Source: Candidatus Spyradenecus sp. (lineage in GTDB: Bacteria > Verrucomicrobiota > Verrucomicrobiia > Opitutales > UBA953). Taken from it: DNA of 64,000 nt. Shown piece by piece: positions 36,001 to 42,000 of the stretch. The stretch is from positions 128,001 to 192,000 of the forward strand of contig JAZSKX010000014.1 in assembly GCA_045535075.1 (NCBI GenBank). The letters run 5' to 3'. A program made the position numbers. Position 1 is the stretch's first letter, and each line of letters starts with the position of its first letter.

Positions 36001-39000
36001 GCGGAGTTTCTTCTTCCGGCGCGAGTGAGCCGATGACTTTGATAAACGGTTCCGGCGCCTCGGGAACGCTTTCGCCGATGTTGTCTTCCGGGCATTCGAG
36101 TGTAGGAATTTCCGGGCGTTCAATCGGTTGTTCCGCATTTGCCGCCGCTTTCGCTTGGGCTTCCGTCATCACCGGGTGAGCGTACAACTTTCCGTCGGAC
36201 ATTTCCGAAACATAACCTTCGGTAACGAGCCAGCGAACCGTTCCGACGAGCTCTTTTGCGGCGGCGTTTTCTTCTGCGGGAAGGGCGACGGCAGCCTCCG
36301 GATTTTCGCTCGCGGGAGCACTCGGCGTTTCAATCCCGAGCATCTTGGACGGAAGTTCTTTTAAATCGGTTCCGGGATTTTTTTCCAAAAAGTCAAAAAC
36401 ATGTTGGATCGTTTCCGAGAAAACCGAGCCGGGCGTCCGGAATTTTCGCTTAACGCCGCAAACCATCGTAATCCCTTTGGAGCCTTTTTTGTAGAGGGAA
36501 AATCCGAGATGGCGCAGGCGCCCGCGGAATCCGTTTGCCGTGTTGAGCGGGAATTTGCGCTGAAATGCGATTTCGGATTCGATTGATGTTTTCAGCGGTC
36601 CGATCGGCATTTTTTCAACGAGCGTTCCCGCGATGCGGACTTGTTTCGACTGGCGGACGACGGATTCTTTGCGTGATGCGACGAGAAATGCCTTTGCCGA
36701 TCCGGCGCCGTCAAAGCTTTCCGGATCGCCTTCGCGGCGGTCTTTAAGCGTGTAGCGCGTAACTTTCTTCATTTTATCGACCCAGGTTGCAATTAATTCG
36801 GGATCGCTGACGGTTTCGACGCGCGACATGAATTTTTCAAATGCCATTCGCGGGAGATTTGCCGCATGGTGATCGCGCAACGCCTGCTGGTAGCCGTGGT
36901 AATTCGGCGGAGCAATGACTTCTCCGGTGAACCCGCACTTCGCAATCATCGTAAAATTCCCTTTCGGTGCGTCGATTTCAATTTCTTCGCAATTAAAGAA
37001 TTTATCCAGATGATTTTTGAGCACGTGGGCGACGGCATCTTGTTCGTTGCGGAACGGAATCCCGTCGGGAACGCTGACGTAAAACGGCGGGAGCGGCGCT
37101 TCGGAGGGAATCGGTTTGCCCGCCTTGTCTTTCTTTTGTAATGGCGAAATAACGACATTAAAGCGCTCCGGCTTTTCCAGAATGATTTTTGCAATATCGA
37201 AAAGCACATAGGTGCGAGCCGAGTTTTTGATTGCTTTGGCGAGCACCGTAAAGGGTTTTTCCTCCGGATAAATCATGACATCTGCGGCACGGACGCTGTG
37301 GCGCGGTTCTTCATTTCCCCCGTTTTTGTAGTGTTTGTGGCGTCGGTCGTTCTTGCGGTTCGGTTTTCCGGAGTCGCGTCGCATTTCGCGTGCGGGAGCG
37401 TCCGAGGTTTCTCCGTCTCTTCGCATTTCGCGTTGCGGGCGCCGGTCTCGCGGTGCGCTGTCGTGTTTAAATTCTTTTCGGGGCGGGCGGCGGCCGTTCC
37501 CGCGGCTTTCCTGCGGAGTGCGTTCAAAATTAATTTTCTTGGCGTCATCTGCCGCCCAATCCGGATTGAAATTGAGCGACGAGAGCGAACTCAAATCGAT
37601 TTCCTGTAGGTTTTCAGAATCTTTGTCCATGGGAATGATGTCTTGTGGAAATGTAGGAATTGTTCAAACAAATTTTATTTAATTAGAAACTTCGCGACGG
37701 GAACGCGCAACCACGAAAAAAGCCAATTAGGCGGCGGATGTGTTTGCCGGTTTATTCGTATTTTCTTAGGACAAACGCGGAGCTGCCGCTTTTAAGGACC
37801 GGTTCGGCCGTGCGGACGTTGTTGATTGCGGAGGCGATAAATGCGAATTTTTTATGCCAGAGTTCCGGAGCGTCGCTGAGCAGACGGTCTCCGAGTTCCC
37901 AGAAAAACGCAATCTCGCTACGCAGTTTTTCCGACTGAATTTTGAAGTGGCGGAAACCGAGTGAGTAGGCGGTCTTAAGTTCTTTTCGGGAAAGAACGGA
38001 GGCTTTTCCCGCCGGATTATCGGAGGCGGCAATGACATTTTCACAGCCGACGCGGTTGAGCAGAGCGTGGCGTTCCCGAAGCAATGAAGCGTCCCAAGGC
38101 GAACGGCGAATTTTTGATAAAACTTCAAGGTGTTCCCGTCGGGCAGGGCAATTGCGAAGGCAGGTGTCGTTGACAACAATTTCAAATTTTTCTGCGGGAA
38201 CGCGAGCAATCAGTTTTTCGAGAAACGCGGCATCCGTTGCGTCGTTGGGATGCAGTGCTGTTTTTTCAAATTTTTCCGCAGAGCGGCTGTAGTATTCCAA
38301 GTTTCCTTGAGCGTTGTCGGCGACGACTTTGTTTGCTCCCGCGTGGATTTTGATTTTCGGAAAATGCTTGCGCAGATAATCGGCGAGCAAGTCCGAGGCG
38401 ACATAGACTCGCGGAGAGGCCGTTGATTCGAGCGAGTGTAAAAAAGTATTGCCGATGACATCGCCGAGTTGGTCTTCTCCGATGAACGGATTGTCAAAAT
38501 CGATTGAGAAATCAACTTTAAGTTCGGCAATTTCCTTGGCGCGTGCGGTGAAATCGCCGGGCGGAATCAGCCGGCGCATCGCATACCAATCAAGCGTCCA
38601 TAGGCACGGCGGCGAGCCGGAGACGTCGCGAATGCGAATTGCGGGGATTTCCGAGCGGACGAATTTTAAAAACTCGACAACGGATTTATCGTAAAGCAAA
38701 GCACCGCCGAGCGACCAAACGGCGTCGGGAAAATCCGGATTTGCAAGGAAATTCGGCGGCGGGAACTCGGGTCGAGGCGTTGCCGTCTGCGGAGCCGACG
38801 GGGAAAGCAGGTTCGGCGCTAAGACGAAACTTGTGGGAATGTTGCTCCGGCTCATTTTCAAATTTGGGGGTTAAGCGTTGCGATCGCTTCGAGGAATTGG
38901 AGTCTTATGCGGTGCATGAAATTTTCGTCGGCATTATCTTCTCGCAAGACTAGGCGAAGTAAATCAAAGAGAGGTCCGCCGGCATTGCTCATGCCGCGTC

Positions 39001-42000
39001 CCTGTACTTTGAATTTGCGGAAGCCCATGTCGTAGAGTCGGCGGATTTCACTTAGGGAAAGAGCGGTTGTCCCGCGATCCGGGCTGGAAATCAGGCGGCG
39101 AATATCGGAACAGCCGTTGTTCGGAAAGAGTTTTTCGAACTCTTCGTCTTTGGCTCCGAAATAGTTGATTGCCGATTGCGAAAGCGAGCGATAGTGTAGG
39201 TGGCGGATTTTACAGCCGCGAACGCAATATTCGTTGACGAGAATTTCGTAGCGATTTTTGTCCTCAAGCGTTTCGAGCATATCGAAATTCCAAGCGTCGT
39301 CCGGATGAATCATCACTTTGTCAAAACGCTCTGCGAGCTTTCGATAATAATCGGCCTTCCCGCGTCCGTGTTCGACGGCGACTTTGATAATTGATGAGAC
39401 CGTCCGCAACGACGGATAATTTTTTTTGACATGCGCGTAAAGAGCCTCGGATGCCATGATGACGCCGTTCCCGCCGGTCGGGTTGTTGCGCTCGAAGAAT
39501 TTGAGGATCGCGTTGCCGGTTTCGTCGCCGAGGTGTTCCTTGTCCAAAAGGTGGTTCGAAAATGTCAAATCTACAGCGATCCCGCGTCGTGCGTAAGCTT
39601 TCCCGGCATCGCGGATTTGTTCTGCCGTACATAAAAGCCGCGGGAGCACTCGTCCGCTGTTCCAAAGGCAAAGCGGAGCACCGTGAACAAGGCGAAGAGT
39701 TTTAGCTCCGAAGACCTGCAGGAAAAAATCGTGAAAAAGCAACAACTCGCGGTCGTTGGCGAAGGCTCCGGAAACATCCCATTCGGCATCGTACCAAAAC
39801 GGATTTAAAACAGAGGAGTTAGCTTGCGTTATGGGCATGGAGGGAAATTTCACTTTTTCGGGCGGGAAAGGACAACCGCACGGGGGTGGCGCTCCCGCCG
39901 GGATTCGAACCCAGATCGCCGGCTTCGGAGGCCAGAATTCTATCCATTGAAATACGGGAGCAAGGAAAGCTATCAAGCAAATCCGCGAAGTGTTTCCGCG
40001 TCAAGAAGAGACTTTTACAAGGTCAAAAAATCTTTTCCGGAATAAGGCGTTACCGCGATGCTTCGCGGGAACGCCCGAAAACTCGGATCTTTTAAAAATA
40101 AAAAAACTCCGCCGGTGCCGTCTCGCGCCAAATCTCTTGCACCATTTTTGGCAAGGTGGGCTTCAAAAACGGAGAAATTTGCGTCCGCCGAAGCGGCATG
40201 CGCCTTCCTCCGCAGAACGAATCCCGTAATTTACTCATAGGAAAAGAGCGTTTTAACGGAGGGTCGAACACCACAGAGCGTGAAGAATCATGCGTTCCCG
40301 CAGCGAAGATTCAATCTTAAAATTTCCCCTTCCGAAGAATCGATGACGGGAACGCGAAAGTGTGCCTTTTTTGCCTTGCGAATACGGGCGAAAAATAAGA
40401 TTCTGTCTAATCCTTTTTTTGTAAAACGTCAGTCATGGGCATTTCTTCCATTTTTAAAATTTTTGCAGGTCGCAACCATCGAAAGTTCGTCAAAAAATGC
40501 AAACCGATTGTTGCTAAAATTAACAAGTTGGAGGCGGAGTATCAGCGCTTGGATGATGAGGCGCTAAAGGCAAAAACGCAGGAATTTATGGAGCGTGTCG
40601 GGAGAGGGGAATCGCTCGACAAAATCTTGCCGGAAGCGTTTGCCGTCGTTAAAAATGCCGCGCGGCGCCTCTGCGGGAGCAAAGTGATTGTTTGTGATCA
40701 CGAGTTGACGTGGGATATGGTGCACTTTGATGTGCAACTCATCGGCGGAATTGCGCTTCACCAAAATAAAATTGCCGAAATGGCTACCGGGGAAGGGAAA
40801 ACACTTGTTGCGACGCTTCCGCTTTACCTGAATGCGCTTACGGGAAGAAATTGCCAACTCGTTACGGTTAACGATTATTTGGCGCGTCGCGACTCGGAAT
40901 GGATGGGGCATCTTTATAAGTTTCTCGGGCTGACGGTCGGATGTATCCAAAATTCCATGCCGCCGTCACTGCGCCGCGAAGCCTACGCGTGTAACATTAC
41001 TTACGGAACGGCATCCGAATTCGGCTTTGATTATTTGCGCGACAACGGTATGGCAGGTTCCCGCCACGAACAGGTTCAAAGCGATTATTATTATTGTATC
41101 GTTGACGAAATTGACTCCATTCTCATCGACGAAGCGCGAACGCCGCTGATTATCTCCGGCCCCGTTCAAGACGATCATGAGCCGCCGTTCGAAGCATTTA
41201 AGCCCGGAGTCGCAGCTCTCGTCGAAAAACAAACACGCCTGTGTAATACCCTTGTTGCAAAAGCACGCAAATTGCTTGAAAAAGCAAAGCCGGGTTCTGA
41301 AGACGAACGCGATGCGCTCGTGCTGTTACTTCAAGTAAAACTGGGCGCTCCGAGAAACAAAGAATTTCTGCGTATGATGGAAAACGGTCATTGGCGCAAA
41401 GCGTTGGACGCGTTTGACGCCGAAATGATGAATGCGTTCAACCGCCAACGCCGTTTTGAAATCAAAGAAGAACTTTACTACGCAATCGATGAAAAACGTC
41501 GCGAATCCGACCTGACTCAACTCGGGCGCGACACGCTCCGCCCGGATAATCCCGACGCATTTGTGCTTCCGGATTTGCCGACGAAATTTATCGAAATCGA
41601 TGCGCGGGAAGACCTCAACGCTGATCAGCGAGCCGAAATGAAGTCTGCTGCGGAAAACGAATTTATCGCCACGAGCGAGACGATTCACTGCATCTCGCAG
41701 CTGCTTCGCGCTTACGCACTTTTTGAAAAAGACGTTCAGTACGTTATCAAGGACGACAAGGTGATGATCGTCGACGAAAATACCGGGCGTATCATGCCGG
41801 GGCGCCGTTGGAGCGACGGTTTGCATCAGGCAATCGAAGCTAAGGAAGGCGTTGAAATCGAGAAGGAATCGAAAACCTACGCGACGATTACGATTCAGAA
41901 TTATTTCCGCATGTATGAAAAACTCGCGGGAATGACGGGAACGGCGGAAACCGAAGCCGGCGAATTTTACGATATTTACCGCCTCGGCGTCGTCGCAATT

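Follow-up and report, generated by a model that had tools for sequence, protein, structure and literature searches.

Gene pair and its surroundings

Two adjacent genes on the minus strand, A and B, form the unit described here; they lie in the window, a 64,000-nucleotide stretch of the Candidatus Spyradenecus sp. genome. Its features, and one local neighbour, are listed in window coordinates.

38858..39838, minus strand: gene A (g00152), ATG start, 326 aa; U32-fold protein, putative catalytic Fe-S subunit
39650..39664, minus strand: A motif W59-N-x-G-R63; B has W-[ST]-L-D-W instead
39110..39226, minus strand: candidate cluster ligands of A, C205-x3-C209-x5-H215...C243, in 76/76 A orthologues
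38996..39010, minus strand: A motif K277-x-Q-G-R281; B keeps Q only
37752..38861, minus strand: gene B (g00151), paralogue of A, 367-369 aa; putative non-catalytic partner
38043..38162, minus strand: B ligand set C234-x3-C238-x5-H244...C273, intact in this genome, dispensable across orthologues
39887..39961, minus strand: tRNA-Arg(CCG), 48 nt upstream of A; local neighbour outside the conserved unit

The stop codon of A overlaps the TTG start of B by 4 nt. This TTG (38861) gives a product of 369 aa, and an alternative ATG at 38855 gives 367 aa. Both genes are intact, and A and B are translationally coupled. BLASTP aligns the two products over 276 columns with 29% identity (2e-39), the same paralogy values as in the earlier note on this DNA, and its statement that the pair escapes the family databases was likewise reproduced: neither protein had a Pfam match at E ≤ 1, PF01136 included, or an NCBIfam family at E ≤ 5, the UbiU/UbiV and TrhP models included. 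A PHROGs search of both proteins found no match. A defence system was rejected, PADLOC being blank for A and reaching merely E 0.058 for B. The tRNA-Arg was dismissed both as a component of the unit and as an integration mark; it is present in 2/34 related loci, and A and B match the neighbour gene in GC and GC3. Promoter and terminator scans at the locus returned nothing usable. In one metatranscriptome, a relative's 2,486-nt contig spans the tRNA, A and parts of B; because contigs cannot show transcription, it is left out as expression evidence. Twelve pairwise comparisons put dN/dS at 0.02-0.22 in A and at 0.06-0.31 in B, the value of B being the higher in 12/12.

Distribution

The pair is a fixed tandem unit, as claimed earlier, with A preceding B at 87/87 loci. 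It occurs in 19/19 genomes of the host genus and in 0/102 other genomes searched in the same family, which extends the earlier count of 0 of 42. Outside this family, it was found in 66/81 Akkermansia genomes (previously 6 of 11), and 65 of the 66 positive genomes have 2 or 4 matches. A single-sequence search returned 451 representatives at 1e-10 (859 at 1e-3), so the figure of 793 at 1e-10 was not recovered. Members of this family of 859 clusters were found in Planctomycetota, Desulfobacterales, Bacillota, Alphaproteobacteria and viral contigs. The description "shared only by gut Verrucomicrobia" thus applies to the A-B pair among the genomes searched, and fails for the family, which reaches several phyla and viruses: only as a pair is A-B lineage-limited. 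Three "phage" records matched by A were set aside; they are unannotated, and the one with ORFs listed looks like bacterial DNA. Database proteins P0125-P0166 group with A and B. Trees were built with FastTree.

Fold and U32 descent

The AlphaFold2 model of A has a pLDDT of 94.3. Structure searches against the U32 fold covered A, and both ranked Mk0906 (PDB 5D88) first: Foldseek at 3.9e-6 with TM 0.50, and VIA-align with Z 16.7, rmsd 4.0 and 227 aligned residues, the next match having Z 13.2. The barrel fold reported earlier (pLDDT 92, 1e-6) is thus confirmed, yet identity to Mk0906 is only 12-14%, and the cited literature establishes no function for this protein. A profile search of PDB sequences with the family alignment gave 0 matches at E ≤ 10. 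In sequence, 48/118 family members show a weak PF01136 match (E ≤ 0.1; best member 3.7e-6). The A-family profile reaches an intermediate sequence, L060, at 77.6 bits; L060 itself lies above the PF01136 cut-off (38.7 against 22.4 bits) and matches 5d88 in sequence at 8.6e-7. A second intermediate is a phage "peptidase" resembling RB69 gp50 (AV110 WPK33993), also above the PF01136 cut-off. A therefore has both the U32 fold and U32 descent, via L060 and the gp50-like protein.

The canonical U32 four-Cys motif CX6CX15CX3/4C, present in this genome's canonical U32 proteins, is absent from A, which has CX3CX5H-X27-C. Membership of the radical SAM superfamily is not indicated, as the motif of A reads CxxxCxxR rather than CxxxCxxC and PF04055 misses both genes. 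A and B probably represent an unnamed, divergent branch of the U32 oxidases.

Conserved residues of A

All key residues of A (the four ligands, R63 and K-x-Q-G-R) are invariant at 76/76 distinct orthologous loci. In the wide family, C205, C209, H215 and C243 are kept in 117, 116, 111 and 115 of 118 members. K277-x-Q-G-R281 is the counterpart of K-I-E-G-R in the genome's two canonical U32 proteins. E203, called invariant in the earlier note, is so within A (76/76) and falls to 81/118 in the wide family. E198 aligns weakly with the U32 strand Glu (RlhA E161, TrhP E162); this position is Glu in 104/118 family members, and among the 76 A orthologues it is Glu in 37 and Ile in 38.

The gp50-like phage protein shares with A the layout E-x-L-V-N-E-x-C...C-x2-R...C...F-K-x2-G-R (hhalign 96.7%). 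It differs in being about 20% identical, in having 7 extra residues between the first Cys and the second and in a Cys aligned with H215; it is also encoded by a single gene within a cytosine-modification cluster and is uncharacterised.

Automatic "peptidase U32" labels would make A a collagenase-like or mucin protease. An Atlas neighbour cluster is indeed auto-named "Collagenase and related proteases", and PMC10540074 treats Akkermansia U32 matches as collagenases. This is very improbable: the model of A begins directly at the barrel with no leader seen, the positions that never vary are Cys/His ligands and basic residues, and in the cited literature Cys-bearing U32 proteins are tied to Fe-S-dependent hydroxylation.

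It is also conceivable that the barrel was repurposed, its three-Cys/His site serving reduction, dehydration, or metal or redox sensing instead of oxygen transfer from prephenate. The non-canonical ligand spacing, the variable E198 and the distant fold match would fit, as would PMC13326640 Table 1, where RB69 gp50 is guessed to be a "sugar or heterocycle reductase". We consider this improbable, given that K-x-Q-G-R and R63 are invariant, that chorismate mutase neighbours recur (see below) and that the U32 proteins with genetically defined roles in the cited literature are all tied to hydroxylation.

An asymmetric pair

The ligand set that the earlier note held to be invariant is so in A and not in B. 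Across 76 B orthologues, C234 is retained in 52, C238 in 33, H244 in 39 and C273 in 32. The full set is present in 19/60 scored Akkermansia copies and largely lost in the other 41/60; this genome has all four ligands, as do the host-genus copies that were scored (10/10). The pair is thus asymmetric: A keeps its ligands and basic motifs throughout, and B lacks those motifs and has decaying ligands.

A and B probably form a heterodimer, as judged from the complex model, which scored 0.86 against 0.43 for the best control. In calibration, 116/157 solved pairs and 2/215 mismatched pairs reached the 0.86 mark, and the A-B runs had at least 64% contact agreement and partner pLDDT of at least 80. The score may instead mirror a homodimer interface common to the whole family. 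Taken with the complex model, the asymmetric conservation of ligands and motifs is what one catalytic and one helper subunit would show, not UbiU/UbiV. In Phycisphaerae, an intact barrel has independently been fused to one without Cys; the branch has yielded catalytic-plus-degenerate two-barrel units at least twice.

Among known systems, Bacillus subtilis TrhP1/TrhP2 (YrrO/YrrN), which serve ho5U34 in tRNA, are likewise tandem U32 paralogues, described as always co-occurring and both needed (PMC6599085). Two subfamilies bear their names, and one of these, PepU32#5, is described as having no conserved cysteines (10.1101/587956); a tandem with one Cys-poor partner offers a design analogy to the decaying ligands of B. 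The A-B pair differs in having no TrhP-model match, no TrhP-type C-terminal extension and another ligand spacing, and a TrhP-like gene is already present in genomes with the pair. RlhA shares the U32 barrel and often carries a second U32 motif (PMC5727448), so that two-barrel units recur in the U32 family; it is, unlike A-B, a long single chain with DUF3656, and the genome has its own RlhA-like frame of 857 residues. UbiU and UbiV resemble A and B in size, in being barrel-only, in tandem arrangement and in forming a heterodimer, which for A-B is a modelled one. Each Ubi subunit is described as holding a [4Fe-4S] cluster (10.1101/587956) on four Cys (CX6CX16CX38C; CXnCX12CX3C), whereas A has CX3CX5H...C and B often none.

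Host physiology and quinones

The host genome encodes menB, a UbiA-family gene, cytochrome bd and two canonical U32 genes. The last bear out the earlier claim of RlhA and TrhP in part: the second should be called TrhP-like, since it scores 378 bits on NF011996, whose cut-off is 534. Whether or not the pair is present, TrhP-like genes occur in the genomes tested, 5/5 of the host genus and 30/30 of Akkermansia, and replacement of TrhP by the pair was accordingly rejected. The organism was also called a menaquinone-making anaerobe. "Anaerobe" needs a qualifier because of cytochrome bd, and although menB is present, the pair does not track it: menB occurs in 5/5 pair-less family genomes and 12/15 pair-less Akkermansia, and one genome with the pair yielded no menB match. 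Within the host family, cytochrome bd is found in 5/5 pair-bearing against 0/5 pair-less genomes; it is present in 14/15 pair-less Akkermansia, so neither menaquinone nor cytochrome bd was kept as a correlate of the pair.

These observations bear on the possibility of a true UbiU/UbiV analogue, with clusters in both subunits and a quinone or other lipid as the hydroxylated substrate. Tandem co-occurrence, the heterodimer model and the intact B ligands of the host genus favour it, together with menB, the UbiA-family gene, the parallel occurrence of pair and cytochrome bd within the family, and a family member (L263) directly behind a fatty acid hydroxylase gene. We regard it as quite improbable, because most scored Akkermansia copies of B have largely lost the ligands, menB and cytochrome bd are equally common in pair-less Akkermansia, NCBIfam gives no UbiU/UbiV match, no SCP2/UbiT match was found among 67 recurring neighbour ORFs, and the UbiD family has no match in the host genome (99.45% complete). 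The likeness to UbiU/UbiV proposed earlier thus does not hold in detail. On the reading proposed below, the substrate would not be ubiquinone.

Neighbouring genes and the proposed reaction

In L222, a family member (230 bits) has the end of a gene with a chorismate mutase domain just upstream, and pabA/trpG- and pabB/trpE-type genes downstream. Phage records with a chorismate mutase homologue number 54, and in the one inspected directly the gene lies between a gp50-like U32 gene and a dCMP hydroxylase gene; in AV110, the small ORF at this position has no chorismate mutase match. A three-sequence chorismate mutase profile found only two distinct places among 318 core-family loci. This genome itself encodes a chorismate mutase. 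To judge from gene order, chorismate mutase beside a family member and beside RB69 gp50-like relatives points to prephenate-dependent, O2-independent hydroxylation.

No pathway neighbours are common to host-genus and Akkermansia loci. In 28/62 Akkermansia loci A-B is followed by metK, in one clade of 39 rows; metK lies beside the pair in 0/14 host-genus loci. SAM riboswitch control was rejected, none being found in 11 loci. A-B could also be a prephenate-dependent oxidase whose substrate, a small metabolite or cofactor precursor, is connected with SAM or cobamide metabolism. This would suit the A-B-metK operon, the Lachnospira eligens homologue that is the last gene in a cobalamin nucleotide-loop run, and the biosynthetic clusters, radical-SAM or chorismate-derived, in which other family members lie (L119, L129, L132, L222). 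Such an oxidase is possible, if unlikely: the metK link goes back to a single ancestral event, and the cobalamin context was seen in one species and is missing beside the six other strong Clostridia matches inspected besides L222 (L223-L227, L140).

We propose that A is a catalytic Fe-S U32 hydroxylase fed by prephenate and B its non-catalytic heterodimer partner, a reading whose chances we consider evenly balanced. Two U32-type TIM barrels would be joined via their C-terminal helices. A would bind an Fe-S cluster through C205, C209, H215 and C243, that is three Cys and a His in place of the canonical four Cys, hold prephenate by the invariant basic residues R63, K277 and R281, and hydroxylate its substrate without O2. 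B would be a second copy of the barrel, stripped of the active-site motifs, that stabilises A or presents the substrate; a SAM-dependent step may follow. The O2-independent hydroxylation suggested in the earlier note is retained as the likeliest chemistry of the pair, and known U32 chemistry is taken as support (PMC10990095, PMC5727448, PMC6599085). Counted against the mechanism are the missing CX6CX15CX3/4C motif, Ile at E198 in 38/76 A, the rarity of the chorismate mutase link in the core family, the distance of the gp50-like proteins, the intact B ligands in the host genus and the RlhA-like and TrhP-like genes already present. The best single guess for the substrate, a tentative one, is a housekeeping macromolecule, namely a stable-RNA base or a protein residue; the lack of common pathway neighbours across the two genera and metK after B were counted toward it.

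Implications

U32 oxidases are described as using an organic oxygen donor, with activity not reconstituted and most subfamilies without a function (PMC10990095, PMC11574389). Against this background, the large unannotated branch with a Cys-x3-Cys-x5-His...Cys site could be a portable, prephenate-fed stand-in for oxygenases, acting without O2 on nucleotides, peptides, lipids or cofactors. In gut Verrucomicrobia, it would take the form of a catalytic-plus-pseudoenzyme heterodimer making an undescribed modification, and in phages the gp50-like protein with chorismate mutase would be an anaerobic route to 5-hydroxy-dCMP. We offer this wider picture as a serious possibility that is still somewhat less than likely. 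If it is true, the gp50-like phage system, with dCMP as a soluble substrate, would allow in vitro reconstitution and make a long-open question on U32 chemistry directly testable. The branch has another ligand set and has given rise to catalytic-plus-degenerate two-barrel units. Being invisible to Pfam and NCBIfam, the A/B branch is missed by U32 surveys of gut genomes. The pair belongs to the core of one Opitutales genus and of most species-level Akkermansia genomes searched, and so probably makes a modification that nobody has looked for.

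A conserved, unannotated pair of U32 descent

Gene A (g00152) and its tandem paralogue B (g00151) lie in the window as follows, the TTG start of B being overlapped by the stop codon of A:

39838-38858, minus strand: gene A, intact, 326 aa
38861-37752, minus strand: gene B, intact, 369 aa if started at TTG, 367 aa if at ATG
tRNA-Arg(CCG), ending 48 nt upstream of A

The two proteins share 29% identity across 276 columns (2e-39), and neither found a match in Pfam, NCBIfam or PHROGs, which bears out the orphan paralogy proposed in an earlier note. In pairwise comparisons, dN/dS ranges over 0.02-0.22 in A and 0.06-0.31 in B, and B has the higher value in 12/12 comparisons, which are not independent; both genes are under purifying selection. 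The pair is real, well conserved and unannotated. Downstream of B, a 550-aa ORF (35978-37630, minus strand) without a Pfam or NCBIfam match is no conserved neighbour of the pair; a 292-aa ORF (33109-33987, plus strand) has a likely signal peptide and matches the Mac-1 (IdeS-like cysteine protease) family at 3.5e-9.

The predicted structure of A is a TIM barrel (pLDDT 94.3), and the U32 barrel fold previously assigned to it holds at the level of the model: the U32 protein Mk0906 (5d88) ranks first in both Foldseek (3.9e-6, TM 0.50) and VIA-align (Z 16.7, rmsd 4.0, 227 residues; runner-up Z 13.2). The sequence gap between this branch and U32 is closed by weak PF01136 matches (48 of 118 diverse family members at E <= 0.1), by the member L060, which scores 77.6 bits with the family profile, exceeds the PF01136 cut-off and matches 5d88 at 8.6e-7, and by the RB69 gp50-like phage protein (AV110 WPK33993), which is above the same cut-off and gives 96.7% against the family profile in hhalign. 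The canonical U32 ligand motif described in 10.1101/587956, CX6CX15CX3/4C, is absent from A, which also falls below the Pfam cut-off though it is a U32 homologue. Its candidate ligands are C205-x3-C209-x5-H215...C243; because H215 aligns in hhalign with a Cys of the phage protein, the alignment suggests it as the fourth candidate cluster ligand. K277-x-Q-G-R281 of A mirrors K-I-E-G-R in the genome's two canonical U32 proteins.

Distribution

The pair is present in 19/19 genomes of the host genus and in 0/102 other genomes searched from the host's taxonomic family. Of the 401 genomes searched across the phylum, only those of the host genus (5) and of Akkermansia, in another family (16), give strong paired matches; one further genome has a strong single match, and the remaining positives are weak. 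Among 81 Akkermansia genomes, 66 are positive for the pair; the number of matches is two or four in 65 of these and five in the remaining one. A precedes B in 87/87 loci (76 distinct), with a 4-nt overlap in 54 by hand count, so the fixed tandem that the earlier note described stands. Its restriction to gut Verrucomicrobia stands for strong pairs in the genomes searched and not for the sequence family, which comprises 859 clusters (50% identity; 451 of them at 1e-10) and extends to Desulfobacterales, Planctomycetota, Bacillota, Alphaproteobacteria and T4-like viral contigs. In a FastTree tree, host-genus A proteins group with three Akkermansia rows (support 90), a topology that fits, without demonstrating, gene transfer between the two orders. 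Several Akkermansia genomes hold a second, divergent pair (L048, L052 and related loci), near NrfD and cytochrome c genes in nine loci, its B lacking most ligands.

Asymmetry of A and B

All 76 distinct A proteins retain W59, N60, G62, R63, H178, N202, E203, C205, C209, R212, H215, C243, K277, Q279, G280 and R281. In B, W-N-x-G-R becomes W-[ST]-L-D-W, only the Q of K-x-Q-G-R is retained, and ligands are kept unevenly (C234 52/76, C238 33/76, H244 39/76, C273 32/76). An alignment-free count found the complete ligand set in 10/10 scored host-genus B proteins (4 unscored) and, in Akkermansia, in 19/60 scored, with at most one ligand in the other 41 (2 unscored). Cluster ligands in both paralogues, as claimed before, are therefore not general: they are invariant in A (76/76) and complete in only those 19/60 Akkermansia B. 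Since B is always kept while its ligands are often lost, its cluster site is dispensable across orthologues.

The A-B complex model scores 0.86 against 0.43 for the best control, a mark reached by 116/157 solved and 2/215 mismatched pairs; at least 64% of contacts are common to runs, partner pLDDT is at least 80, and the modelled interface consists of matching C-terminal helices from each chain. This score may mirror a family-wide dimer surface; together with the asymmetry of A and B, the model fits a probable catalytic-plus-helper heterodimer, a variant among U32 oxidases. Phycisphaerae encode fusions of an intact and a Cys-less barrel, whose halves cluster together in the tree, apart from A and B; by this grouping, the intact-plus-degenerate design arose at least twice. 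Two or three tandem copies of the fused double barrel occur in Phycisphaerae (L114:6761-10943, L255, L258), and one genome has seven profile matches.

Genomic contexts and chemistry

O2-independent hydroxylation by known U32 proteins is described as dependent on Fe-S clusters and on prephenate (PMC5727448, PMC6599085, PMC10990095). Evidence on the chemistry of this branch comes from gene contexts. At L222:4714-8776 (G669), a 230-bit member has a chorismate-mutase-domain gene on one side and glutamine amidotransferase and chorismate-binding (pabA/pabB-type) genes on the other, in a cluster that includes a B12 radical SAM gene. If these neighbours make 4-amino-4-deoxyprephenate, one might speculate from this one locus that the U32 protein moves an amino group, not a hydroxyl. 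Counting against a prephenate link, a three-sequence profile placed chorismate mutase at only two distinct sites in 318 loci. Peptide-modification clusters house further members: L119 includes three radical SAM genes and an NHLP exporter, and L132 has TIGR03975 above cut-off. Several viral members directly follow 2OG-Fe(II) oxygenase genes; this adjacency may be chance, since marine T4-like phages commonly carry oxygenases of this kind.

Among further loci, a low-GC gene run of Intestinibacter bartlettii (L129:3179-11232) starts with a family member and also encodes two radical SAM proteins of the SPASM type, a UvrA-like ATPase and a HemN-like/thymidylate kinase fusion. Genes for 4Fe-4S ferredoxin-domain proteins flank a distant subgroup (L081, L082, L239-L241); these proteins weakly resemble QueG/reductive dehalogenase and may be electron partners. 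At L235:4413-6541 an O-methyltransferase gene directly follows a distant member, the same hydroxylate-then-methylate layout as trhP-trmR.

In RB69-like phages, a distant member, gp50-like by position, lies within the arabinosyl-5-hydroxycytosine cluster, next to an O2-dependent dCMP hydroxylase gene in AV110 (L184:6001-7161) and Virsaitis27 (L218:4992-7197). In PMC13326640 the adjoining dCMP hydroxylase uses O2 and gp50 is left unassigned. The gp50-like gene occurs in 222 phage records. The hydroxylase occurs in 343, of which 57 belong to Acinetobacter phages; Acinetobacter is outside the ten commonest names among gp50-like records and thus accounts for at most three of those. Acinetobacter is a strict aerobe. 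Direct search found the gene in 0/2 Acinetobacter phages and 0/1 Dhakavirus, with positive controls 2/2. A chorismate mutase homologue occurs in 54 phage records (hosts Enterobacterales and Shewanella); in Virsaitis27 its gene separates that of the U32 protein from that of the hydroxylase. From these gene contents, the gp50-like protein may provide an anaerobic, prephenate-dependent path to 5-hydroxycytosine; against this, AV110 has an unrelated ORF at the chorismate mutase position, and an E. coli Dhakavirus lacks gp50. Cyanophage Syn33 (L185:5632-7398) joins a U32-like domain of this branch to an extra C-terminal domain, methyltransferase-like by eye, and L060 as query matched 77 Synechococcus phage records.

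Possible substrates

Searches of the genome detected menB, a single UbiA-family gene, cytochrome bd and chorismate mutase; UbiD and MqnA gave no match. menB, cytochrome bd and a TrhP-like gene are about as frequent in Akkermansia genomes with the pair (15 of the 66 positives) as in those without it (all 15 negatives), out of the 81. The likeness to UbiU/UbiV drawn in the earlier note is not borne out in detail, given the frequent ligand loss in B, the even frequency of menB and the lack of a UbiD match; A-B is not UbiU/UbiV. Inside the host's family, 5/5 host-genus genomes and 0/5 genomes of the largest sister genus have cytochrome bd and a gene of TrhP type, a split matching the pair, with these entries in the host genome:

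G000:C5:69985-71289 and G000:C15:150511-151881: cytochrome bd / TrhP-like gene

metK, the sole neighbour to recur, comes directly after B in 28/62 Akkermansia loci, all from a single clade, and in 0/14 host-genus loci. Being genus-wide and without pathway neighbours, the pair behaves like a housekeeping modification enzyme. Our ranked guess at its substrate is, first, a stable-RNA base or protein residue; second, a SAM- or cobamide-linked metabolite; third, a quinone or lipid. In Lachnospira eligens (L186:5872-6789), a homologue is the final gene of a cobalamin nucleotide-loop run, with cobyric acid synthase at the run's end.

Discussion

In the literature searched, mostly outside subscription journals, we found no paper on the A/B branch, on the pair or on a link between gp50 and chorismate mutase; outer members (L060- or gp50-type) may already be in Table S2 of PMC5727448. 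The design of A-B resembles that of TrhP1/TrhP2, and its chemistry would be like that of the U32 oxidases. A-B is an unannotated variant of these enzymes, probably a catalytic-plus-helper heterodimer, for which we infer O2-independent, prephenate-dependent hydroxylation.
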